Positions 1,290 through 41,351 of a stretch of 41,351 nucleotides of DNA are shown here, one piece after another. Position 1 is the stretch's first letter. The number at the start of each line of letters is the position of its first letter. This DNA is from a virus (lineage: Duplodnaviria > Heunggongvirae > Uroviricota > Caudoviricetes). A program made the position numbers and the translations under genes. The stretch lies in the IMG/VR virus record IMGVR_UViG_2541047933_000011; one strand, 5' to 3'. Below the pieces are notes generated by a model. It saw only the letters and a program-made list of their open reading frames with translations, did no database searches and was not told where the DNA came from.

Positions 1290-1772
1290 CTATCTGGTCA
1301 GGGTGTCGTACTGTTTTTCGCAGACTCTTCCGGCTTCGGCTGCCCGGTCAGCATACTCTGCCAGTTGTCTGTTTCTCTCGAGAGATTTGCTGAGCACGTC
1401 GGCAAGCAAAACTCCGGTGTCTGCGGCTGACGACCCAGCGCCGACAATGGCGTTATACTGCCTGAGCTGCTCACGGATGGCAACGAGCTGTTGCTGCAAC
1501 CTGCCAGCGCGAGCGGCAGCATCAAGAGCATCGCTGCGCGCCTGATCGATCCTCTGCTGCGCTTCACGTTCATTGGTCGCTTTCTCCTGTTCGTAGTACT
1601 GACGAACTTTTTCTTCTTCGGCTTTGCGGTCTTCTTCCGCCTGCGCATACCCGGCATCGTACTGGCGACTGCCGTGTGCATTCCAGGCTACAACTCCTGA
1701 TATGACCAGAACAGCAAGCATCGCCATGATAACCAACTGTTTCCAGTATGCTTTTGCGAATGCCCAGATCAT
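1290..1772 (-). CDS. Rz-like i-spanin
   Basis: ATG at 1772 overlaps endolysin stop (ATGA); N-terminal TM helix then charged coiled-coil; last gene of lysis cassette. Confidence 0.6.
1298..1531 (-). CDS. Rz1-like o-spanin embedded in Rz in an alternate frame
   Basis: internal ATG (1531 or 1522) giving lipoprotein signal [12 protein letters not shown] inside the Rz gene; start uncertain. Confidence 0.45.
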   Translation of the reverse strand: MLLMLPLALAGCSNSSLPSVSSSGSITPLSALGRQPQTPEFCLPTCSANLSRETDNWQSMLTGQPKPEESAKNSTTP

Positions 1773-2398
1773 ACCGCCAGCACCTTACTGGCAGTGATGT
1801 ATCGCGCGCGCCGGTCATCAATGCCGTTCCGGCCACCATTGATAAGCAGAGTTACACGTGCAATATCTCCGGTATACTTCATGCAGCCTTTGCTGGCGAA
1901 GAACCACGCCGCGCTACGAGCCGCATATTCGTCCTGCGCCAGCAGTTCAGGGCTCTCCAGCAGGTCAACCTTCAGACCGTTTCCGCAATCACGATAGTTA
2001 TTCAAACCGGTAATCTGGATAAGTCCGCGCCCTCGGTAATTCCAGCCATCACCAGGGGCATTGTTCCCCATGCGTTTGCTGTACACCAGATTGGCAATCG
2101 CTCTCTGGCGCTCAGGTGGCAATGGTGGTTCGCCTGCGCGTCGCCCCAATGCGTTGGCCTGTCCCTGAGTGAGACGCCCAGCCCGAACAAAGTTAGCCAG
2201 TCCGCTGACGCTGTAGTTGAAATTCTCCTGCAACCGGGTGAAGCCTCCAGACTCATGCCCGACCTGAGCAATAAACATAGCCTGATCTTCTGGTTTGCTG
2301 ATACCAAACTCTTTCATCGCAGAAGTTATATGCGAGAACCAGCGTGCGGCCAGTGCCTCGCTGATACCAGCAGCTCGCTGGAATTGTTTAATCTCCAT
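1769..2398 (-). CDS. endolysin, glycoside hydrolase family 19-like
   Basis: ATG at 2398 with GAGG RBS; motif [10 protein letters not shown]...NFNYS typical of GH19-type phage lysozymes (recalled); the longer ORF to 2563 is an upstream extension. Confidence 0.75.
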
Positions 2399-2696
2399 GT
2401 TTAGACCTCGATACTTTGAAAATTTGAACGACGTTACCGCGCGTTTTAATAACCGCAGCAAGCATGACAGCGTTGATAATGACCTCGGATAAATCCACAG
2501 CCATTGGCGTACGTAACCAGATTGCATAGGCGACTCGAACAGGAATACTGGCCGCAGCAACAATCAGGAAATAAGCAAGCCATCCTCCCCACCTTCGGTG
2601 TTGAGAGCCGTTACGCCGGAATGTGACAACGCGAATTGCTATGCCAGTGCAAATAACTGCATTGGTGATAAGCAAAAAAAACTCATGCGTTACCAT
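2388..2696 (-). CDS. small multi-TM membrane protein in lysis cassette (second holin or antiholin candidate)
   Basis: ATG at 2696 overlapping stop of upstream holin gene; about 3 hydrophobic segments; overlaps endolysin start. Confidence 0.45.
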
Positions 2697-3087
2697 CGTC
2701 TTTTCTCCCCGGAATTAACTCGCGTGGATTATCGGAACGGTGATAGAGCCATATACCAATACGCACAGCGACAATTGCTGACACGAATGCGCCTGCAGAG
2801 AAAACAATCCCTTTTTCAAAAGAGTCCTGCGTGATGGTAGGGATCAGGCTGGCTATGCCGATAAGAATTGATGCTGCTGGTTTGTAAAAGAGAAGGCCGC
2901 AAAGAAAGCTGAGCATCGACAGGAGCACCCGGCGACGGATGGGGTACTCTACTGCAGAGGTAACAAAAATTACCGCCCCAGCCAAAGCCCCTAAAGCAAC
3001 CTCCGGAGGGACACCTGCAATAACTGCAGCAAGAGAACCAAAACTAAGCAACTGATTTAATTGCTCACTTGTTACTTGAGCAGACAT
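2683..3087 (-). CDS. putative holin (about 3 TM segments)
   Basis: ATG 3087 with AGGAG RBS; three hydrophobic helices; first gene of lysis cassette. Confidence 0.55.
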   Translation of the reverse strand: MSAQVTSEQLNQLLSFGSLAAVIAGVPPEVALGALAGAVIFVTSAVEYPIRRRVLLSMLSFLCGLLFYKPAASILIGIASLIPTITQDSFEKGIVFSAGAFVSAIVAVRIGIWLYHRSDNPRELIPGRKDDGNA

Positions 3088-3368: not shown

Positions 3369-3395
3369 CCCGCAATATTTTGCGGGCTTTTTTTT
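3369..3395. terminator. stem-loop with flanking A/T runs at 3' end of tail spike gene (possible terminator)
   Basis: CCCGCAA-tatt-TTGCGGG hairpin followed by T9 on plus strand and preceded by A-run on minus strand. Confidence 0.35.
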
Positions 3396-6300
3396 AACGT
3401 TCTTCCAGAGACTGAACCCGCTCTTTTATCTTATCCATTTCTCTGCGCTGCCATGCTGCCTCGATATAGAATAAGAGATCAGGTCTGACCCCCCATCTAG
3501 ATCCTGCTGGCGTTATTTCAACGCGCTCAATGATGTCTTCTATTACCATCACTGGATTATCATCCTCATCAACAATGATGCTCCCGTCATTATCAGTCAG
3601 CGGCATTTCCCTTTGGCCAGTAATGACGTCATCATATACTGCGGGATAATCGTCATAGCAAAGAAAGGCATAGCGGCATGTTGTGCTTTCTTCTTCCATG
3701 AGTCCGTGAGAAATAAGAACATCACGAAGTTGCTGCGCGATTACACCATGATGTATCCTCGCCCCTTCTTCCCCCTTTATAGCGACAGCGTTCAGCCATT
3801 TATAAGCGATATACCTGACGTCACCCCAGGCATCCAGCAATGCTTCGTCAGGAGAGACCGGCTCTGTCTTTAATGTTCCGTCACTGGTAACCACAGGATT
3901 GGAGCCAAGATAAACTGTCGAGAACCTGTTTCCCGGACCACCAAGAGCATTTACATTATCAAGATAAGGTTTAACATCTCCGTTCTCAAAAAGATGTTCG
4001 AGTGCGTTATATACCGCGCGACGTGGAGTACTGCTTCCGGAACCATGCAACGTTATCATTGCACCATCTGCTGAAGACGTTGTTTCACCGCCGCTAACGA
4101 TTAATCTCTGAGCGGTAACATCATCAGACGGTACTTTCTTCGCAATAATGGCGTAATTACCCTCAAGTTTGACTTCCGCGCGAACTTGTCCTGATGTACC
4201 TGCATGGACAGTCAGTGACTGGACGGCAACATCATCTGTGAAATCAACGGGTACAGGAACCGTCCTCACGCCTGACGTCGACATAAAAGTAGGAAGCGTT
4301 CTGTTAGGAGTGGCTCCGTAGACAAAATCCCTTGAAACAAATTCTTCCTGTTTAATTTTCACCCTGAAACAATACAAATCAGCCGGGTGACCATCGTGAA
4401 CATAAGGATATTTTCTGTTGTTATCCCCTATGCTCCATGGGTTTAGAAAGTCTTCCCCACCGAAAATGTAGTACAGCCAGTTGTCTTTGATACAAACTGA
4501 ACCAACACCAACCGCAGAGTTAACTATTCCGCCCTGATAAATCTGATCAGTAACATTAACCCACTCTACATTATCCAGACTCCACTCATTGACGTTAACT
4601 CTGGTCATAAATGTTCTTGGATAATTTCCTGCATAACGGTTATCAGGCTCTCCTCCTTCCCACTCACCAAATGCGCGCTCACTGCCAAAAATAATCAGCT
4701 CATCGCCAACTTTGGCAAAAGGAAGGTTTGAGTGATGAACATTATTTGGGAAGCGAAGAGAATTCCATGATGTACCTAAATCAGAGCTTCTGTGCAATGA
4801 ACTACCGGGTTGAGTACTTAATGTCCCCCTGGTCGTCAGATACAGAATGCCATCATAATATTTTACACATGGCTCAGATGCATTCGCCTCATATTCTGCA
4901 GGTATGCGTCTGCGAACAAAGCTACCAGGAGAACCGAAAGCATCAGAGAAATAGAGTATCCCAAGCTCGCGTGGACCAATATCACCATTATGGTAGCCAA
5001 CAGCAAAACTGTTATCGCTAATCGTCGCAAAACTGTGAATCTCAGTAACAGGAGTGCTTCCGTCAACAAAAGAAGGAATAGTTCCAAGACTGGTTTTTCT
5101 CCATGGTGACGAGTGAAATGATGTACCAAAACTCCAGTATCTACCCTCGTTATTCTGATCCACATCCTGGGTATTTTGCGTCGTAACTGTAAAAGTATTT
5201 TTATCAATAACAGTAGTCACCGTCATATTCCCGGTAACACCTGTAACACCAGAGTTTGAGAAGTTGACAAAATCACCAGCAAATAATCCGTGATCAGTAA
5301 TGCGAATATAAGCGACTTGCTGATTTGCTGCTTTCGTTATACCACCATAAACGCGAAGGCTGCGACTCATTGGGCGATCCCACAACTCTGCAACCTGCAG
5401 TTTATTTCCGCTCACGGTCCGCGTCTCAATTACAGCAAAAAGGCGATTTCTGACAACCCCCATACTCATGCAGTGATAGTTAACTGTGGGATAGTTTTCA
5501 TGTAAATCTGTAAGCCATTCCGGCGTTGTCCAGGTCTTCCCGTCATCTCCTGAGCGAACCCATGCAACATGGAGGTTATTTACACCATGGCGGTCTCCAG
5601 CCATAAAAGGCGCATAGATGACATTGTCATATACAAACGTTTTATCCTGCGTCCAGGCGTTGTACCACGGTGTATCTGTAATTTTAAATAACTCTCCCTG
5701 GATAAAATCTTCAGAAGCATAAAAAAGAGGCTGGCCCGGTATTCTCTCAAATAAAAAACGAGCATTTTTAAATCGACTGACATCCGGAAGAGTTGATACT
5801 TTAAAAGTAAGCCCTAATCCGTCAATTTTATAACCTGGAGATGAGGCTTCAAGGCACGCGCTTATTGCAGTGGAATCGTCATTTATACCATCACCAACAG
5901 CTCCAAAATCTTTGGGGCTAATAGCATCACGCATTTTATCCTGGAACGTTCGGTACACAGCCCCAGAACCATACTGAATAAACCAACCAAAACCACCAAC
6001 AACCCCGGCGATTGCAGCATCGACATAATTACGCATTGAGCGATTATTTACAGCGTCCTGCTCAAATGATGGATCTGCAAGGTTAGAAATTTTGTTTTGC
6101 TTTGCATCGTAATATTTTGCAAGCAAAGATGGTTTCATCAATGCACGTCTGAACCACCCAAAACATTGCTGGATCAGCATCGTCAGGTAGTCAAAGGCAT
6201 CTTCATGCACTTCGGGGAAAAATTTTCCCTGATTGCGAAGGTCTGTCTCCTGCACCACATCAAGCACACGATCTATCGTAATTCGCCATCCAGCAGCAAG

Positions 6301-6513
6301 CGGCGACGGAAGAACAACAGAACCGCCACTATAAGTGCCCGCCCCAGTTACCGTATAACCGGTATCCAGTACTAGTTCTGTTACGTTACCGTTAAGGTCA
6401 GACACCTGAACAACCAGGTCGGATTTTTTGAAAATACGGAAGGTATACGGAAATGATGTCGTAACGCCGTTACCAGTGTATTCGTTGTGGTCAACTTCGG
6501 TTGAGACCGTCAT
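3394..6513 (-). CDS. tail spike: T7 gp17-like N-terminal adaptor, beta-helix/sialidase-like Asp-box region, C-terminal S74-type intramolecular chaperone domain
   Basis: 1039 aa; GGAG RBS; N-terminus YTGNGVTTSFPYTF; DFGAVGDGINDDSTAI pectate-lyase-like motif; Asp-boxes SGDDGKTW and SSDLGTSW; C-terminal GVIAQQL region. Confidence 0.8.
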   Translation of the reverse strand: MTVSTEVDHNEYTGNGVTTSFPYTFRIFKKSDLVVQVSDLNGNVTELVLDTGYTVTGAGTYSGGSVVLPSPLAAGWRITIDRVLDVVQETDLRNQGKFFPEVHEDAFDYLTMLIQQCFGWFRRALMKPSLLAKYYDAKQNKISNLADPSFEQDAVNNRSMRNYVDAAIAGVVGGFGWFIQYGSGAVYRTFQDKMRDAISPKDFGAVGDGINDDSTAISACLEASSPGYKIDGLGLTFKVSTLPDVSRFKNARFLFERIPGQPLFYASEDFIQGELFKITDTPWYNAWTQDKTFVYDNVIYAPFMAGDRHGVNNLHVAWVRSGDDGKTWTTPEWLTDLHENYPTVNYHCMSMGVVRNRLFAVIETRTVSGNKLQVAELWDRPMSRSLRVYGGITKAANQQVAYIRITDHGLFAGDFVNFSNSGVTGVTGNMTVTTVIDKNTFTVTTQNTQDVDQNNEGRYWSFGTSFHSSPWRKTSLGTIPSFVDGSTPVTEIHSFATISDNSFAVGYHNGDIGPRELGILYFSDAFGSPGSFVRRRIPAEYEANASEPCVKYYDGILYLTTRGTLSTQPGSSLHRSSDLGTSWNSLRFPNNVHHSNLPFAKVGDELIIFGSERAFGEWEGGEPDNRYAGNYPRTFMTRVNVNEWSLDNVEWVNVTDQIYQGGIVNSAVGVGSVCIKDNWLYYIFGGEDFLNPWSIGDNNRKYPYVHDGHPADLYCFRVKIKQEEFVSRDFVYGATPNRTLPTFMSTSGVRTVPVPVDFTDDVAVQSLTVHAGTSGQVRAEVKLEGNYAIIAKKVPSDDVTAQRLIVSGGETTSSADGAMITLHGSGSSTPRRAVYNALEHLFENGDVKPYLDNVNALGGPGNRFSTVYLGSNPVVTSDGTLKTEPVSPDEALLDAWGDVRYIAYKWLNAVAIKGEEGARIHHGVIAQQLRDVLISHGLMEEESTTCRYAFLCYDDYPAVYDDVITGQREMPLTDNDGSIIVDEDDNPVMVIEDIIERVEITPAGSRWGVRPDLLFYIEAAWQRREMDKIKERVQSLEER

Positions 6514-6616: not shown

Positions 6617-6633
6617 ATTACCTTTCGGGTAAT
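6617..6633. promoter_or_regulatory. operator-like palindrome ATTACC-tttcg-GGTAAT (perfect)
   Basis: exact 6-5-6 inverted repeat; 37 bp upstream of LexA box and 76 bp upstream of ATG 6709. Confidence 0.6.
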
Positions 6634-7735: not shown

Positions 7736-7752
7736 ATTACCTTAAAGGTAAT
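7736..7752. promoter_or_regulatory. operator-like palindrome ATTACC-ttaaa-GGTAAT (perfect)
   Basis: exact inverted repeat 20 bp upstream of ATG 7716 (minus strand). Confidence 0.6.
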
Positions 7753-7800: not shown

Positions 7801-7830
7801 TTGATTTTAATATTTCTTCGCGTTTATCAT
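7801..7830 (+). promoter_or_regulatory. candidate sigma70 promoter (TTGATT-18-TATCAT) overlapped by operator
   Basis: -35 at 7801-7806, -10 at 7825-7830; operator 7829..7845 overlaps -10 and start region. Confidence 0.4.
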
Positions 7831-7845
7831 TACCTTTGCGGTAAA
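7829..7845. promoter_or_regulatory. operator-like palindrome ATTACC-tttgc-GGTAAa
   Basis: core TTACC-N5-GGTAA exact. Confidence 0.55.
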
Positions 7846-8111
7846 TTTACATCGCACTCCTCTTGTGCCATAGTAATCGGGCACTGGCAAAATCCAGTGC
7901 CGGGATTGGTCTCCCGGATTACTACAGAGGCACATATGCCGCATAAGCGGTTTTTTTATGTGTAAAGCGCACCTATTCTATGGTGGGCTGTGTGGGGGCA
8001 CCGAAAGGTGCGCCGGGTTCCTTTGTAGCCGGTAAGACCAACTCTGCACAGTTCACCACCATCTGATTGGTCTCAGCGGTGGTGATTAACCTAACTACAA
8101 AGGTGATCGCC
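7846..8111 (+). other. long structured non-coding leader upstream of Bro-N gene (possible attenuator or small RNA)
   Basis: about 265 nt without a credible ORF; hairpins at 7872-7897 and 7996-8011 (GAAA loop); CCGC-ataa-GCGG plus T7 at 7938-7957. Confidence 0.3.
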
Positions 8112-8804
8112 ATGAATACCAAACCTTCCATCTTTTCCTTTGAGTCATCCTGCCAGATCCGTATGTTCATGATTGACGGAGAACCTTGGTTTGTCACCAA
8201 AGATGTGTGCAATGCTTTGAATATTGATGTTACACAAGCGAGAAAACTTGATAAAAAAGGCTGGAACAAAAAGGGGCTGTATTCAATACAGACCCCTGGT
8301 GGAATACAAGAACTATCCATCGTTTCAGAATCAGGTCTCTACATCCTTATTCTGCGTTGCAAAGAGGCAATGACTGAGGGAACGAGAGCATTCAGATTTC
8401 TTGAATGGGTTACAGGTGAGGTTCTTCCTCAGATCCGCCGCACCGGAAGTTACATTAAAAACTCGCTCCCGCAGGAAGAACGCATAAAGATGGTTGCCGA
8501 CCAGGTAGCCAACGCCACAGCATCAGCAGTGATGCAGGCAATGAAGATAGAGAACAAAACCTACAGTGCCCCACTGAAGCCCGGCTACCGCAGCCTGATT
8601 CATTCTCCGTCTGGTGTTCTCGGCCTGACGGAGAACTCATTGCTTATGAATCTGCTAAACCAGTTACAGGAAGACGGGCACGACGTATCGGGCGCGGCGG
8701 CGGAGCTGACCACCATGTTCTGCTACATCGTCGGTGTGAGCAAATGCCTGCGTGATATCCAGACCCACGCGGAGTACATCAACGACAAGGCAGGGTTCTT
8801 CTGA
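8112..8804 (+). CDS. Bro-N domain antirepressor-like protein
   Basis: ATG 8112 with AGGTGA RBS; N-terminal FMIDGEPWFVTKDVCNALNI Bro-N motif; C-terminal domain paralogous to 6709..6966. Confidence 0.75.
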   Translation: MNTKPSIFSFESSCQIRMFMIDGEPWFVTKDVCNALNIDVTQARKLDKKGWNKKGLYSIQTPGGIQELSIVSESGLYILILRCKEAMTEGTRAFRFLEWVTGEVLPQIRRTGSYIKNSLPQEERIKMVADQVANATASAVMQAMKIENKTYSAPLKPGYRSLIHSPSGVLGLTENSLLMNLLNQLQEDGHDVSGAAAELTTMFCYIVGVSKCLRDIQTHAEYINDKAGFF

Positions 8805-8875
8805 CGGGCGGTGGCACAGGGACGTGCCTTTAAATAATTCTGTACAGATTGCAGACTGGGGGTGAATAGAGTACT

Positions 8876-8892
8876 ATTACCCCAAAGGTAAA
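8876..8892. promoter_or_regulatory. operator-like palindrome ATTACC-ccaaa-GGTAAa
   Basis: core exact; 26 bp upstream of ATG 8918. Confidence 0.55.
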
Positions 8893-8917
8893 CCGAGAGT
8901 TTACATGAGGGGGAAAC

Positions 8918-9106
8918 ATGGAAATCAACATCATTACATTGCTGAAGGCCATTATTGGCGGAGCGGGCTTAGGCTTTGCCCTACCAGGCGGATTATCTTT
9001 CCTGCTTCCTGCTTTTACTGTTACAGCTGGGATAGCCTATGCATTTGCTGTGGCTGGTGCTGTTGCACTCCCTGCTATCTATGCCGCAAAGAAGTTAGCC
9101 AACTAA
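8918..9106 (+). CDS. small hydrophobic Gly/Ala-zipper peptide (bacteriocin-like or membrane toxin-like)
   Basis: 62 aa; GAGGGGG RBS; N-terminal 15 aa ends in GG (MEINIITLLKAIIGG) followed by 47-aa hydrophobic glycine-rich segment. Confidence 0.5.
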   Translation: MEINIITLLKAIIGGAGLGFALPGGLSFLLPAFTVTAGIAYAFAVAGAVALPAIYAAKKLAN

Positions 9107-9107
9107 A

Positions 9108-9440
9108 ATGCCTGATTTATCTTGGCTTGCGCCCAGAGATGCACAGCAATTGACAAGGTTTTATTTCATACTGTGCATTGCTTATCTTGCTGTTCATCTG
9201 ATATGGGATGCCGTTTGCAAAGATACGCCTCCTTTTTCTTTGGATAAGTTGCAATACAAGATGAATGAGGTTTATTCATCATCTACTTTTGCAACCAGCG
9301 CATTCTTCATTGTTATTCTGTTCGATATGAAGAATCCACTGAGAACTTCAGATGCTTTCATATTCCCATTAATTATTGCTGCTCTAACTGGCTTTATGAT
9401 CTCATTATCAGCAATAGTGCCAAAGAAAGTAAATAACTGA
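9108..9440 (+). CDS. 3-TM membrane protein translationally coupled to the hydrophobic peptide (immunity or partner candidate)
   Basis: ATG 1 nt after upstream stop; three predicted TM helices; AT-rich. Confidence 0.5.
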   Translation: MPDLSWLAPRDAQQLTRFYFILCIAYLAVHLIWDAVCKDTPPFSLDKLQYKMNEVYSSSTFATSAFFIVILFDMKNPLRTSDAFIFPLIIAALTGFMISLSAIVPKKVNN

Positions 9441-9443
9441 ATA

Positions 9444-9466
9444 AGCCCGCGTTGCGGGCTTTTTTA
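9444..9466 (+). terminator. rho-independent terminator
   Basis: AGCCCGC-gttg-CGGGCT followed by TTTTT. Confidence 0.6.
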
Positions 9467-9537
9467 TGGACGAAACAAAAGTCAGTGCTACACTCATTGA
9501 CGCCACATCGAGGTGGCTTATAGATGGAAATGTCACA

Positions 9538-9699
9538 ATGAAAAAAGCATTTGCTGCACTGTTCGTTTTGTTGTCTCTGGTAGCTTCAACTCAGGCCTTT
9601 GCCGGTCGTTGTCAGCACGACAGCGATACTGCCGCTGACGGCTCCCGCTGCGGTGGGCGTTCTGCGGATTCCCGCCCGGGCGGCGGTGGCATTCGTTAA
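9538..9699 (+). CDS. small secreted Cys/Gly-containing peptide
   Basis: internal ATG gives signal peptide MKKAFAALFVLLSLVASTQAFA then about 31-aa mature peptide with 2 Cys; start and reality uncertain. Confidence 0.35.
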   Translation: MKKAFAALFVLLSLVASTQAFAGRCQHDSDTAADGSRCGGRSADSRPGGGGIR

Positions 9700-9728: not shown

Positions 9729-10580
9729 TCACTGTGCAGTTTTCGCTGATCGATTTTCAGCTCTAAATTCAAGAACCGTTTCAATATTTCTTTCCTTCAG
9801 CATATCAATAACATTTTTATTCATTTGACTATCACTGGTTAATAACTGGTAAACGTTGCTTCTCTCTTTATCAGAATTTTCTTTAACAGCTGCTTTGCAT
9901 GCCAAATGCTTATTGAAATTTTCTACATCGCTAGTACAGGAATTTACGGCTGCTGATGAAATATCAGACGCTGAAGAAACACCATCATCCAAACGTTTTA
10001 TAGCATTTTCTATACATGAGTTAAGGGAATAAACGACAACTGAGCGATACCCTTCAGACGCACACCATTCTAAATTTCTTGAAGGATCGAGTGGTTTTAC
10101 TTCGCTGGATTGAATTAACTTGTCAAAAACTGACTTATATTCAATCTGTTTTTTATCTATAGCCCATACTTCAGTAGCTGATTTATAATTCCCCGTATGC
10201 CTATTAACATCAAATCCATGTTTTATAAGCAAATCTGCCCATGAAAGATTTATTGATTCATTGTTATGAGGCCATTTTCCTGTCAGAACCGCCCCCATAG
10301 ACCCCATATATCCGCCATATGATGGTATAGCACCATGGCTCAGTAACTTCTCAGCAACCACAGGGCAATTAATTACATAAGAGGCGTAAAGCCCATTCCA
10401 TAAAGCCCCTCTATAGTAATCGCCACGATTAGGTTCTTTTAAGTCGATAGCCTTTGATAATTGTTCACACGTTTTGCATGCATCAAAGTTATCCTTATTG
10501 CATTGCAATGAACTGGCGGCTGTAGGATTTACAGAGACTATTGAAAGCACTATGCCAAAAAACAAATTTATTTTTTTCAT
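9729..10580 (-). CDS. secreted protein with ankyrin-like repeats
   Basis: 283 aa; signal peptide MKKINLFFGIVLSIVSVNPTAASS; ankyrin-like segments (AEKLLSHGA; ADLLIKHGFDVNRHTG); AT-rich; starts 1 nt after stop of upstream virion gene. Confidence 0.55.
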   Translation of the reverse strand: MKKINLFFGIVLSIVSVNPTAASSLQCNKDNFDACKTCEQLSKAIDLKEPNRGDYYRGALWNGLYASYVINCPVVAEKLLSHGAIPSYGGYMGSMGAVLTGKWPHNNESINLSWADLLIKHGFDVNRHTGNYKSATEVWAIDKKQIEYKSVFDKLIQSSEVKPLDPSRNLEWCASEGYRSVVVYSLNSCIENAIKRLDDGVSSASDISSAAVNSCTSDVENFNKHLACKAAVKENSDKERSNVYQLLTSDSQMNKNVIDMLKERNIETVLEFRAENRSAKTAQ

Positions 10581-26014: not shown

Positions 26015-26031
26015 ATTACCTTTCAGGTAAC
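26015..26031. promoter_or_regulatory. operator-like palindrome ATTACC-tttca-GGTAAc
   Basis: core exact; 90 bp upstream of ATG 25925. Confidence 0.55.
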
Positions 26032-28568: not shown

Positions 28569-29161
28569 TGATTGCCATCCTGACGTTCTTTCAGTCTCTT
28601 CCTGGCTGCCGCTATGCGATCAGCAATTGTCACATTCACATTAACATCCAGGCGTTCTTTGAATGCGTTGACGTCGACGTGCTTACCAATCAGTTCGAGG
28701 TTCTTCACCTTGTCAGGCCATTTAATTTTTTTGAGGATTGTCTCTATCGAATCCTCGTTCATGTTCATGATGGTCGATGACAGATCAAAGCCACTAAGCG
28801 TAGTGCGCCAGATTTTCGGCCACTCGCGGATTGGCTTAAGGCTCCCATCGTCGTTGAGGATGTCGATCACGTCCATCTGGTCGATCTCCACCAGGCGCAT
28901 GAGAACGTAATCAGCACTGACGCGCATTCGTTTGTTGCGCTCTTCCATCAGCTCGGCAATCCGTTTTTGAATGCGTTCATCGCGCATCATGAGACTGGCT
29001 TTAACTGCCGCTGTATTTGGGGAGAATCCTGCGTTAATCGCAGCCTGAGTCTGGTTTTCAGGCGTTTGGATGTATGACTGGCAATAAGCCTCCTGCATTG
29101 CTGTTAGTGGCTTAAATTGCGTTGATTTGCGTTTATAGGTTTTAGGTTCAGCAGGCATCAT
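28565..29161 (-). CDS. terminase small subunit
   Basis: about 199 aa from ATG 29161; HTH-like NQTQAAINAGFS; directly upstream of terL. Confidence 0.65.
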   Translation of the reverse strand: MMPAEPKTYKRKSTQFKPLTAMQEAYCQSYIQTPENQTQAAINAGFSPNTAAVKASLMMRDERIQKRIAELMEERNKRMRVSADYVLMRLVEIDQMDVIDILNDDGSLKPIREWPKIWRTTLSGFDLSSTIMNMNEDSIETILKKIKWPDKVKNLELIGKHVDVNAFKERLDVNVNVTIADRIAAARKRLKERQDGNQ

Positions 29162-29177
29162 AACCACCGTGGTAATA

Positions 29178-29194
29178 GTTACCGTTGTGGTAAT
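29178..29194. promoter_or_regulatory. operator-like palindrome gTTACC-gttgt-GGTAAt inside an 11-bp direct repeat (GTGGTAATAGT x2)
   Basis: core exact; 17 bp upstream of terS ATG. Confidence 0.55.
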
Positions 29195-32979: not shown

Positions 32980-32996
32980 TTTACCCCTTAGGTAAT
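32980..32996. promoter_or_regulatory. operator-like palindrome tTTACC-cctta-GGTAAT
   Basis: core exact; overlaps RBS of 32630..32977. Confidence 0.55.
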
Positions 32997-33041
32997 TAAA
33001 AACCACATAAGACACGAAATCAATAGATTTTAGAATATTTT

Positions 33042-33058
33042 ATTACCTCTAAGGTAAT
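33042..33058. promoter_or_regulatory. operator-like palindrome ATTACC-tctaa-GGTAAT (perfect)
   Basis: exact; 65 bp upstream of ATG 32977, inside the early operon. Confidence 0.6.
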
Positions 33059-34980: not shown

Positions 34981-34997
34981 ATTACCTTTGAGGTACG
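34981..34997. promoter_or_regulatory. degenerate operator-like palindrome ATTACC-tttga-GGTACg
   Basis: one core mismatch. Confidence 0.4.
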
Positions 34998-35317: not shown

Positions 35318-35334
35318 TTCACCCATAAGGTAAC
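35318..35334. promoter_or_regulatory. degenerate operator-like site tTCACC-cataa-GGTAAc
   Basis: one core mismatch; immunity intergenic region. Confidence 0.4.
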
Positions 35335-35348
35335 AAAAATCAAGGATA

Positions 35349-35365
35349 GTTACCTACGGGGTGCA
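35349..35365. promoter_or_regulatory. degenerate operator-like site gTTACC-tacgg-GGTGCa
   Basis: two core mismatches; abuts next site. Confidence 0.35.
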
Positions 35366-35382
35366 TTTACCTGTTGGGTAAT
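35366..35382. promoter_or_regulatory. operator-like palindrome tTTACC-tgttg-GGTAAT
   Basis: core exact; 55 bp upstream of repressor ATG. Confidence 0.55.
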
Positions 35383-35436: not shown

Positions 35437-36021
35437 ATGAAAAGTATCCAGGACGTCCGCAGGCAAAATCTCAACGACTTGATCGACCGTGAATTCAATG
35501 GTGTTCAGACGCGGATGGCAGAAAAACTTGGAACTCAGGCAAATCTGGTAAACCGCTGGGCTCTTGGCAAGAAGGTTATCGGCGACCAGGTTGCACGAAA
35601 AATTGAAGCTGCCGCCAATAAACCCCGTAACTGGCTTGATATTGATCGTTCGCTTTCTCAGGAGGGTTTTCAGCCTGTCGGCCCGAGCGATATAGGTCAG
35701 CTGGCGGCTCACAACCTGGAACGCTGGATGAGCGAAAGCCGCGACCTTTCAACACAGGGAAAACTTCACCGCGCATCCGGCGTCGCCCAGGTGACAATCA
35801 GCCGCCTGTTAAACAATGAGGTCAGCGTTTCCATTTCCACTCTGGAGAATGTTGCATCCGCATTCGGGCGTCACGGATATGAACTACTGATTCACCCGCA
35901 CGACCCTGCGACTATCAACTATGACCGCTCACGCTACGCATTGTTACCCGAAACCGAGAAAGCAAAGATCGAAAGTTACATTGAATTTGTCATCAACCAG
36001 AACGAAAAAAGCAAACAATAA
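35437..36021 (+). CDS. prophage repressor candidate with two XRE-type HTH domains and no peptidase domain
   Basis: 194 aa; HTH-1 QTRMAEKLGTQANLVNRW, HTH-2 SGVAQVTISRLLNNEVS; no S24 Ala-Gly/Ser-Lys region; no strong SD. Confidence 0.6.
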   Translation: MKSIQDVRRQNLNDLIDREFNGVQTRMAEKLGTQANLVNRWALGKKVIGDQVARKIEAAANKPRNWLDIDRSLSQEGFQPVGPSDIGQLAAHNLERWMSESRDLSTQGKLHRASGVAQVTISRLLNNEVSVSISTLENVASAFGRHGYELLIHPHDPATINYDRSRYALLPETEKAKIESYIEFVINQNEKSKQ

Positions 36022-36076: not shown

Positions 36077-36093
36077 ATTACCTTACGGGTAAT
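36077..36093. promoter_or_regulatory. operator-like palindrome ATTACC-ttacg-GGTAAT (perfect)
   Basis: exact; 19 bp upstream of TTGACA -35. Confidence 0.6.
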
Positions 36094-36111
36094 TTTTTTA
36101 ACTCATATCTA

Positions 36112-36140
36112 TTGACACCAAACCAAATAAGCATAATTAT
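36112..36140 (+). promoter_or_regulatory. candidate early promoter (PL analogue): TTGACA -35 with AT-rich -10
   Basis: TTGACA at 36112-36117; -10 candidates at 36133-36140; flanked by operators 36077 and 36139. Confidence 0.5.
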
Positions 36141-36155
36141 TACCTCAACGGTAAC
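36139..36155. promoter_or_regulatory. operator-like palindrome ATTACC-tcaac-GGTAAc
   Basis: core exact; overlaps -10 and start region; 19 bp upstream of ATG 36174. Confidence 0.55.
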
Positions 36156-40100: not shown

Positions 40101-41351
40101 TTATTCCCCCGCCATCCACTTCTCAAACTTCGACGGGGAGAACGGAATCAGATCCGTATGCTCCCCGTCAATCCATGAATCAATCATATCGGCCCACTGC
40201 TGCAACATGTAGGCGCGCTGTCTGGCGTATTCCGCTTTGTTATATACGGCGCGCACACCTTTCTGCTCATGTGCCAGAGCCTTTTCAATCCAGTCTGAAG
40301 GATAACCAGCCTCATGCAACAACGTACTGGCTGTACGGCGCATATCATGTACAGTGAAGTCCTGAATATGCTCACCATCTTCATTTATTATTTTCACCGT
40401 TCTGTCGATCAGAGAGTTCAGCGCGGCATTAGATAATGGCTTCCGGAAATTGTAACGACCAGGAACCAGATATTCACTTCCACCAGCGCACATCTGCAAC
40501 CCGACCAATATATCCTGTGCCTGTTTAGGCAGGTAAATAACGTGCGCCCGGCTTCCCTTCATGCGGTCTGGAGGAATTGTCCATGTCCATTTTTTAAAAT
40601 CTATTTCATCCCACGTTGCATTGGTGAATTCGCCCTTACGAACCATAGTGATAAGCACCAGTTTTAAAGCCATTTTCATAGTGCCCATAGCACCAATGGC
40701 ATCCAGCGTGCGGAAGAACAGGCCAATTTCTTCTGGTGTCAGTGTTCGCTCTCGTGGTTTAAATATGGCGATAGACGAAGGTTTAATGTCAGCCGCAGGA
40801 TTAAACAAACCATGACCACGGTCATTGGCGTGACGGTATACGCTACTGATGATCTCCCTGGCCTGCACTGCTGTTGCCCGGCCACCGCGTTCGACAATCC
40901 GGTCACACAAATCACGAACCATTGATGTGGTAATTTCAGCCATCATTTTATTGCCAAGAACCGGAAGTATGTCACGGTCGATCACCGCCTGTTTCATTGC
41001 GCGGGTACTGTCAGCCAGGATGACGTGTTTCATATAACTGTCGGTATGTACCGCAAACGTCTCGGCACCACGAATCTTTTTGATACCGTCACGTTTAGCC
41101 GCAGCCGGCGACTGGCCTGCTTTAAGCAGCTTCTTTGCAGCAATCAGTTCTTCTCGCGCTTCTGCCAGGCTGATACCGTCACGCCCATACTGCCCGATTA
41201 CCAGTGTTTCGCGGCGACCGTTGATACGGTAGTCATAGCGAAACGAGACCGTACCTGACGTAAGCACAGCTACATACAGCCCGTCACGATCGGAAACTTT
41301 GTACAGTTTGTCCTGTGGCTTGAGGTTCTTTAATTTTGTATCGGTAAGCAC
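40101..41351 (-). CDS. int: tyrosine integrase, P4-type; 5' end at window edge
   Basis: 416 aa; N-terminus LTDTKLKNLKPQDKLYKVSDRDGLY (P4-type arm-binding domain); catalytic region HDMRRT...VYNKAEY; begins at a GTG on the last base of the window so the true start may lie beyond. Confidence 0.9.
   Translation of the reverse strand: MLTDTKLKNLKPQDKLYKVSDRDGLYVAVLTSGTVSFRYDYRINGRRETLVIGQYGRDGISLAEAREELIAAKKLLKAGQSPAAAKRDGIKKIRGAETFAVHTDSYMKHVILADSTRAMKQAVIDRDILPVLGNKMMAEITTSMVRDLCDRIVERGGRATAVQAREIISSVYRHANDRGHGLFNPAADIKPSSIAIFKPRERTLTPEEIGLFFRTLDAIGAMGTMKMALKLVLITMVRKGEFTNATWDEIDFKKWTWTIPPDRMKGSRAHVIYLPKQAQDILVGLQMCAGGSEYLVPGRYNFRKPLSNAALNSLIDRTVKIINEDGEHIQDFTVHDMRRTASTLLHEAGYPSDWIEKALAHEQKGVRAVYNKAEYARQRAYMLQQWADMIDSWIDGEHTDLIPFSPSKFEKWMAGE

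Follow-up and report, generated by a model that had tools for sequence, protein, structure and literature searches.

In the present study, we examined a two-gene cassette in a DNA stretch of 41,351 nucleotides (nt) (IMG/VR virus record IMGVR_UViG_2541047933_000011; hereafter, the window), which represents an epsilon15-like (TL-2011b/phiV10-type) temperate podovirus integrated in Escherichia coli. The cassette (8849-9468, plus strand) encodes a hydrophobic, glycine/alanine-zipper peptide of 62 amino acids (aa) at 8918-9106 (WP_000405096.1) and a three-helix membrane protein of 110 aa, the partner, at 9108-9440 (WP_001113079.1). A putative promoter was read from the sequence at 8849-8877 and consists of a -35 element (TTGCAG, 8849-8854), a 17-nt spacer, and a -10 element (TACTAT, 8872-8877). 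An unstranded operator palindrome, ATTACC-N5-GGTAA(A), lies across the -10 element at 8876-8892 (ATTACC-N5-GGTAA, 8876-8891), and its end is separated by 26 nt from the start codon of the peptide gene. The Shine-Dalgarno sequence GAGGGGG (8907-8913) is located 4 nt 5' of this ATG at 8918. The open reading frame (ORF) of the partner begins 1 nt past the stop codon of the peptide gene (9108 versus 9106), forming the stop/start junction TAA-A-ATG (9104-9110). An intrinsic terminator follows at 9443-9468, in which a hairpin (9443-9461) with an 8-bp stem, including six GC pairs, and a 3-nt loop precedes a T-run. The original prediction, which was made by a model from the sequence alone, had described a strong ribosome-binding site, the palindrome 26 nt upstream of the peptide start, and the 1-nt junction, and the coordinates agree with all three. 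It had also described the region as AT-rich. The guanine-plus-cytosine (GC) content of the pair is indeed lower than that of the window (41.3% vs 48.3%); however, this difference is due wholly to the partner gene (37.5%), while the peptide gene has a GC content of 48.1%. The inferred promoter (8849-8877), the terminator of its own (9443-9461), and the low GC content of the partner relative to the window are features of moron-type insertions.

Both ORFs are genuine genes under strong purifying selection. The ratios of nonsynonymous to synonymous substitution rates (dN/dS) across genera were 0.03-0.27 for the peptide and 0.02-0.14 for the partner; these values and the conserved synteny ruled out the possibility that the two ORFs are not real genes. 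The peptide matched PHROG 13406 (E = 2.5e-38) and the partner PHROG 36716 (E = 2.5e-40), and neither of these families has an assigned function. Approximately 60 homologue clusters of the peptide were found, and those with a named source were all from Enterobacterales. An exhaustive profile search with the partner identified 82 representative proteins at E <= 1e-3, and its relatives extend to Providencia, Erwinia, and metagenome-assembled genomes of marine Oceanospirillaceae and Rhodospirillales. One match to the partner profile, a 3161-aa threonine-rich repeat protein (P0115), was spurious.

The peptide and partner genes are adjacent in every locus in which both were readable, comprising 18 curated loci, approximately 40 loci with a recognizable peptide, the 6 remote relatives examined, and an Aeromonas plasmid. 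A stop-N-[ATG/GTG/TTG] or overlapping stop/start junction was present in nearly all of the related loci, and many partners start with a weak TTG or GTG codon. This conserved junction and the weak partner starts indicate that the partner is translated by reinitiation after the peptide. The view of the original prediction that the two genes form a coupled functional pair is, therefore, borne out across the family.

The pair is mobile. Nineteen IMG/VR viral contigs bear the cassette, and epsilon15-like prophages with the pair occur in E. coli, Klebsiella, Enterobacter, and other bacteria. The Klebsiella version of the peptide appears in 2675 index blocks of an assembly collection, and the E. coli form is found in K1-capsule-specific prophages of extraintestinal pathogenic and avian pathogenic E. 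coli strains. The window itself is a K1-capsule-specific prophage because its tailspike gene (3394-6513, minus strand) is annotated as an endosialidase. Most carriers of the family are not phages. A complete, unannotated pair is present at 1859-2409 (minus strand) in the Aeromonas veronii plasmid pHN21SC2322-1 (L064; 4928 bp, non-mobilizable), the annotated genes of which are only qnrS2 and one encoding a hypothetical protein. In genomic islands, the pair lies beside integrase, hipBA, higB, or hicB genes, and several of these islands are at guaA, the attachment side of this phage type. The window ends in an integrase gene (40101-41351, minus strand), and strain FDAARGOS_1303 contains an identical stretch that ends in the integrase gene adjoining guaA. 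The chromosomal pairs in Serratia fonticola and Providencia also adjoin guaA, and these copies may be remnants of similar elements. In eight Yersinia species and Sodalis, the pair occupies a fixed chromosomal locus, flanked by a CorA-family gene on one side and an SBP_bac_5 gene on the other. The small RNA FnrS (RF01796, 118-122 bits) was detected near the pair in Yersinia rohdei (L012, 3217-3336) and Sodalis (L022, 2145-2261), which indicates that the Yersinia and Sodalis loci are orthologous. A gene with an ABM (antibiotic biosynthesis monooxygenase-like) domain was noted approximately 400 bp 5' of the pair in S. fonticola (L003-L006, 5324-5620) and in unrelated marine contigs (L029-L031, approximately 2046-2339). 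We set this gene aside as a functional link; the identity between the Serratia and marine proteins is only 33% across 49 aa, a domain-level similarity that is perhaps a coincidence.

The peptide has the appearance of a small integral membrane protein. Its grand average of hydropathy (GRAVY) is +1.33, glycine and alanine account for 42.6% of residues 16-62, and its C terminus ends in a KK anchor; no soluble receptor-binding domain is present. Small-xxx-small ladders run along the chain (A11-G15-G19, G17-A21-G25, G38-A42-A46-A50, and A40-A44-A48). The AlphaFold2 model is all-helical, with a single continuous helix of 57 residues (predicted local distance difference test [pLDDT] score of 83.9). 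The partner is predicted to contain three helices (residues 12-36, 45-72, and 82-103; mean pLDDT 68.5), and three hydrophobic helices were also obtained by hydropathy, in line with the three transmembrane (TM) segments that were originally predicted. Its motifs H30, W33-D34, K51, and D73-x2-NPLR-x-SD are kept within Enterobacterales, and D34, T40, and K51 are almost invariant throughout the wide family. Neither protein had a significant match in Pfam, NCBIfam, or PADLOC; at E <= 1, PADLOC v2 matched neither of the two nor the 53-aa protein encoded downstream. In sequence profile searches of the PDB, the partner had no match and the peptide matched at noise level only. Only scattered noise was returned when 63 relatives of the partner and 44 of the peptide were scanned with Pfam and when the same 44 were scanned with NCBIfam. 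Literature searches by accession number, sequence fragment, and topic found nothing on either protein. The pair, both members of which are annotated only as hypothetical, thus appears to represent a family not previously described, although its general kind, a small membrane effector and a membrane partner carried on mobile DNA, is familiar.

The palindrome at 8876 is a genuine multi-copy operator. When the pattern ATTACC-N5-GGTAA was counted on the two strands of the whole window with one mismatch allowed, 25 strand matches (approximately 13 sites) were found against 0.42 expected by chance. These sites are located at 6617-6633, 7736-7752, 7829-7845, 8876-8892, 26015-26031, 29160-29194, 32980-33058, 34981-34997, 35366-35382, and 36077-36155, and the full form of the dispersed palindrome is ATTACC-N5-GGTAAT. 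The palindrome that the original prediction had called an operator is, thus, one of approximately 13 copies of what is probably the site of the phage repressor. The distribution of the sites is not random, and several overlap -10 hexamers. The copy at 7829-7845 overlaps the -10 element of the antirepressor-operon promoter (TATCAT/ATTACC, 7825-7845). The divergent intergenic region 35319-35382 contains a clear copy at 35366-35382 along with two degenerate ones that were spotted by eye, and two copies are present at 36077-36155, the second of which lies immediately 3' of a TTGACA...CATAAT promoter. Two neighboring copies (29160-29194) fall within the annotated 5' end of the small-terminase gene.

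A gene at 35437-36021 (plus strand), which has operator clusters on each side, encodes a 194-aa protein with two helix-turn-helix (HTH) domains, which matched the Pfam YdaS-like HTH (residues 21-61) and HTH_3 (residues 106-147) families. We take this protein, the candidate operator-binding factor, to be the prophage repressor. Pfam detected no S24 or other peptidase domain in it. Because of this and the flanking operator clusters, we suggest that induction proceeds via the antirepressor rather than self-cleavage; the repressor would be inactivated by the antirepressor and not by RecA-stimulated cleavage. The cassette promoter probably belongs to the regulon of this repressor, in which case little expression of the pair is expected in the lysogen, with activation at the same time as the antirepressor. 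The arrangement TTGCA...TAnnnT is retained in the Klebsiella prophage copies of the cassette promoter; however, since the promoter at 8849-8877 falls under the 9/12 threshold of the consensus scan, we regard it as putative. Phage TL-2011b has a near-identical promoter and operator with different cargo behind them, which indicates that this regulatory region belongs to the phage backbone and not to the cassette.

The cassette is placed between the antirepressor gene and the ejection-protein genes. Upstream, a P1-like immI operon (7801-8804, plus strand) comprises a promoter and operator (7801-7845; the promoter scan placed the promoter at 7801-7830), an a1b1/isrK/C4 region (7868-8063), and a BRO-N antirepressor gene (approximately 8112-8804; Pfam Bro-N, E = 1.7e-13). 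Rfam scored the C4 antisense RNA at 78.6 bits and isrK at 74.7 bits at 7868-8063, and the a1 and b1 targets of C4 were just under the gathering score. A terminator scan between the antirepressor stop codon (8804) and the cassette found none; therefore, the pair forms the distal end of the immI operon, besides having its own promoter. This layout, in which one repressor appears to serve many operators, is by analogy P1-like. As in the immI operons of P1 and P7, the C4 antisense RNA lies 5' of the antirepressor; as with the dispersed C1 operators of P1, the operator of the operon promoter recurs at many promoters (approximately 13 sites here), and the repressor, like C1, contains no recognizable autocleavage domain. 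In contrast, the P1 C1 operator is asymmetric whereas the present operator is symmetric (ATTACC-N5-GGTAAT), and the virion is that of an epsilon15-like podovirus. We know of no P1 counterpart of the distal cargo slot.

The cassette occupies a hypervariable cargo slot (8805-9537) between the antirepressor gene and a conserved 53-aa gene. Among 5426 complete E. coli genomes, the flanks of the slot were present in 502 and this cassette in 19. At least six alternative cassettes, this pair included, were found between identical flanks in these 502 genomes (examples are the window, L002, and L057-L060). The other cargo consists of a 59-aa protein with a YafO-like toxin, a DUF4760 protein, a 108-aa protein with a DUF2335 membrane protein, 55-aa and 147-aa proteins, and a 210-aa protein; several of these alternatives are pairs of a small gene followed by a larger gene. 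PADLOC v2 at E <= 0.01 matched none of the alternative cargo. A tblastn search of both proteins against 50,697 phage records found no match, and only the flanks of the cassette matched, in TL-2011b-like phages. The cassette shares with toxin-antitoxin (TA) modules the form of a compact two-gene operon that moves among prophages, a plasmid, and islands, and it is interchangeable with the YafO-like cassette.

We tentatively favor the explanation that the two proteins form a hetero-oligomer in the membrane of the producing cell, with a toxin/antidote-like or holin/antiholin-like logic that is used at the switch from lysogeny to lysis, while allowing that this reading is slightly likelier to be wrong than right. 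The 62-aa peptide, with two hydrophobic small-residue-zipper segments, and the three-helix partner constitute a self-contained, co-translated module of small integral membrane proteins. The peptide would remain in the producer membrane, its N terminus being part of the hydrophobic body and not a cleavable leader. As predicted from its small-xxx-small ladders, it may be the oligomerizing, pore-prone component, and the partner may restrain or position it within the hetero-oligomer. Translation of the partner would reinitiate at the peptide stop codon such that both are always co-produced. The module travels as a cassette among prophages, a small plasmid, and genomic islands, and in this phage fills the cargo slot with which the antirepressor (immI) operon ends distally. 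The repressor operator over the -10 element would keep the pair low in the lysogen and allow expression with the antirepressor at infection or induction, when the induced pair may act on the host envelope for host take-over or the exclusion of competitors. We favor a toxin/antidote- or holin/antiholin-like logic because of the company the pair keeps, namely, the YafO-like alternative cargo, the TA neighbors, and the tiny plasmid carrier. The membrane toxin with its antagonist, which the original prediction had offered as a fallback, is the class of mechanism favored here. The modules of TisB, HokB, GhoT, pinholin S21, and P1 LydA/LydB likewise involve small hydrophobic peptides with small-residue packing faces, and they are self-contained cassettes on mobile elements in which a second gene possibly holds the first in check. 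However, they have no sequence relationship to the present pair, no endolysin is linked to the pair, and the putative antagonist here is a co-translated 3-TM protein, not an RNA or a soluble protein.

The leading proposal of the original prediction was a bacteriocin or microcin with its immunity protein. The peptide would then be a class II double-glycine microcin or a Cdz-like glycine-zipper bacteriocin that is cleaved after G15 and exported, and the partner would confer immunity; we consider this to be highly improbable. The description of the peptide that prompted this proposal is correct: the first 15 residues (MEINIITLLKAIIGG) close with GG, positions -4 (I) and -7 (L) are hydrophobic, and the remaining 47 aa are rich in glycine and alanine, a composition typical of class II microcins. 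A small glycine/alanine-rich peptide gene coupled to a gene for a small multi-pass membrane protein also resembles the operons of MccV (cvaC/cvi) and MccE492 (mceA/mceB), the pair is present on a small plasmid, and the peptide could conceivably be released when the phage lyses the cell or by an exporter whose gene lies elsewhere in the genome. However, the leader consensus of class II bacteriocins comprises 15-25 aa with GG, GA, or GS at -2/-1, hydrophobic residues at -4, -7, -12, and -15, an acidic residue at -8, and an overall hydrophilic or amphipathic character. The peptide fits at GG, -4, -7, and -15 (M) and misfits at -12 (N), and position -8 is never acidic (L, F, or M in every aligned member). 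The GRAVY of residues 1-15 (+1.43) is as hydrophobic as that of the remainder (+1.30), and this 47-aa "mature" part carries the KK anchor and offers no soluble receptor-binding or uptake domain. Residues 1-15 are conserved like the rest of the peptide, with an invariant K10, whereas G14 of the GG is alanine in whole clades. The GG forms part of the motif K-x(3-6)-[GA]-G-x-G-x-G, which recurs even in distant relatives among the alpha- and gammaproteobacteria, including IGKAAIAGAGVGLA and IGKGLVAGLGVGMA; this motif appears to behave as a helix-packing motif and not as a cleavage site. No bacteriocin or microcin hidden Markov model in Pfam or NCBIfam (E <= 1) matched the window peptide or its 43 relatives, except for a match of one of these 44 members to BacteriocIIc_cy (cyclic class IIc) at the noise level (E = 0.094). 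The original prediction had itself reported no exporter in the window, and we found no C39 peptidase, ATP-binding cassette (ABC) transporter, membrane fusion protein (MFP), or type I secretion system (T1SS) gene annotated in the E. coli prophage that matches the window or present among the Pfam-annotated neighbors of the related loci, the scope of this comparison. Bacteriocin loci that are known usually diversify and are polymorphic for presence or absence, whereas this pair is under strong purifying selection and vertically conserved in eight Yersinia species and Sodalis. The closest architectural analogue is the contact-dependent Cdz system of Caulobacter, which requires the two glycine-zipper toxins CdzC and CdzD (84-86 aa, with RTX-like secretion signals) and the adjacent T1SS genes cdzAB, and in which the 3-TM immunity protein CdzI is encoded downstream in the operon (PMC5380434). 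A small hydrophobic glycine-zipper protein gene followed by a small 3-TM protein gene matches the order cdzC/D-cdzI, a likeness in architecture only; here, there is one 62-aa peptide in place of two toxins, and no T1SS, ABC, or MFP genes occur in the annotated neighborhoods. The pair is, thus, not supported as a recognizable secreted bacteriocin.

Three other explanations were considered. An inner-membrane complex that, without self-toxicity, stops competing phages at genome entry or at a step in the envelope, in the manner of P22 SieA, T4 Imm/Sp, or HK97 gp15, is an unlikely reading. In P22, sieA is located beside immI (mnt-arc-ant), between the ejection-protein and tailspike genes, and the position of the cassette between the antirepressor and ejection-protein genes mirrors that of sieA. 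The hypervariable cargo slot and the prediction that both products are small inner-membrane proteins, as are SieA, Imm, and Sp, are consistent with exclusion, which would also benefit chromosomal carriers and, thus, accommodate the conservation in Yersinia. On the other hand, the operator over the -10 element predicts low expression in the lysogen, when prophage exclusion normally matters, and the resemblance to T4 Imm holds only if the pair is expressed early. Two proteins are present instead of one, most relatives are outside phages, and PHROG and PADLOC searches revealed no homology to a known superinfection exclusion protein or defense model. It is distinctly unlikely that the pair is a housekeeping membrane complex (for example, a small channel, or two accessory subunits that serve transport or the homeostasis of the envelope) that hitch-hikes on mobile elements. 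The fixed CorA-family/SBP_bac_5 locus in Yersinia and Sodalis, the very low dN/dS, the extension of the family to distant Proteobacteria, and the conserved polar residues of the partner (D34, T40, and K51) argue for such a role. Helix-packing motifs similar to G-x-G-x-G occur in oligomeric rings, for example, in subunit c of ATP synthase, and the peptide motif resembles them. A housekeeping role accords less well with the patchy distribution of the pair, its recurrence on prophages, on a 4.9-kb plasmid, and beside integrases and TA genes, the lack of a functional neighbor constant across these contexts, and the alternative occupation of the same slot by a YafO-like toxin cassette. An auxiliary holin/antiholin pair that tunes lysis timing, with the 62-aa peptide as a class II-like holin and the 110-aa partner (N-out/C-in, with a basic tail) as a class I-like holin or antiholin, appears very unlikely. 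The sizes, helix numbers, and short basic C termini resemble the holin classes as generally defined, glycine-zipper helices drive the assembly of pinholins, and a holin gene is present in the same phage-like contig as one remote relative. However, this phage already possesses a complete lysis cassette (approximately 1290-3087) with two holin-family genes (2388-3087), approximately 6 kb from the pair, and the pair is located far from the endolysin gene, in the antirepressor operon, which is early and under repressor control. Neither protein matched a holin family in Pfam or PHROG, and most carriers are not phages.

Several observations weigh against the membrane hetero-oligomer with toxin/antidote- or holin/antiholin-like logic. 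In two independent S. fonticola assemblies (L003 and L005, 6116-6519), the partner gene is frameshifted in helix 1 beside an intact peptide gene, which argues mildly against an essential antidote; the partner is full length in two others (L004 and L006). The fixed locus in Yersinia and Sodalis and the strong purifying selection are closer to the picture of a host function than to that of an addiction module. Coupling by reinitiation predicts that the partner is produced in amounts equal to or lower than those of the peptide, an uncommon ratio for an antidote. Neither the cassette nor the alternative cargo is matched by a PADLOC model. Some expression in the lysogen could arise from a weaker promoter-like site that lies 5' of the operator, at 8811-8838. 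Furthermore, AlphaFold2 draws the peptide as one 57-residue helix and not as a hairpin.

We also noted features around the two genes. A possible but weak stem-loop, GTAAAC-N5-GTTTAC, is present as an inverted repeat in the 5' untranslated region (8888-8904, plus strand), with a folding energy of -4.2 kcal/mol (z = -1.1). Most of the other phage-borne copies (L007, L040, L045, L048, L050, and L053) have a stem-loop at the same position, with the stems ATTCAAC/GTTGAAT, TAGGTT/AACCTA, and AATCCGGC/GTTGGGTT. It is energetically too weak for a covarying 5' hairpin to be claimed, and could be a stabilizer of the 5' end of the mRNA or chance. Rfam identified no riboswitch or leader in the region upstream of the cassette, and its weak MicC and Trp/Thr-leader matches at 9371-9475 were merely the terminator. 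The 53-aa gene (9538-9699, plus strand), just past the terminator, belongs to the right flank of the slot, which is conserved. The encoded protein, in which a signal-peptide-like N terminus (...STQAFA/G) is combined with a short Gly/Arg/Asp-rich tail containing two cysteines, matches PHROG 14503 (membrane associated protein, category moron). A 283-aa gene (9729-10580, minus strand) follows; it encodes a signal-peptide-like N terminus, has no Pfam match and a GC content of 36.7%, and is replaced by other genes in related prophages. It looks like a second foreign cassette beside the slot. The lysis cassette of the Klebsiella relatives contains Phage_holin_8, Phage_holin_3_7, and GH19 genes.

The present results also have a bearing on annotation. 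A glycine/alanine-rich hydrophobic peptide, the first 15 residues of which end in GG, may be mistaken for a microcin on inspection; here, its hydrophobicity, its genomic setting, and the pattern of conservation throughout the family set this peptide apart from microcins. If the toxin/antidote- or holin/antiholin-like logic proposed here is correct, the pair represents an undescribed family of small membrane effectors that is common in the prophages of clinically important bacteria, and the hot-spot under phage-repressor control provides a defined place to seek genes of the lysogeny-to-lysis switch. In its boldest form, which we consider to be rather doubtful, the pair would be a new, widespread family of co-translated membrane toxins and antidotes (or pores and gatekeepers) that extends from Enterobacterales to alphaproteobacterial relatives, is wired to the master repressor of epsilon15-like phages, and fires with the antirepressor, depolarizing or remodeling the membrane for host take-over or phage exclusion. 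If this is true, the slot would be a previously unrecognized hot-spot of switch-coupled weapons, with YafO-like toxins and DUF4760 and DUF2335 proteins as the alternatives.

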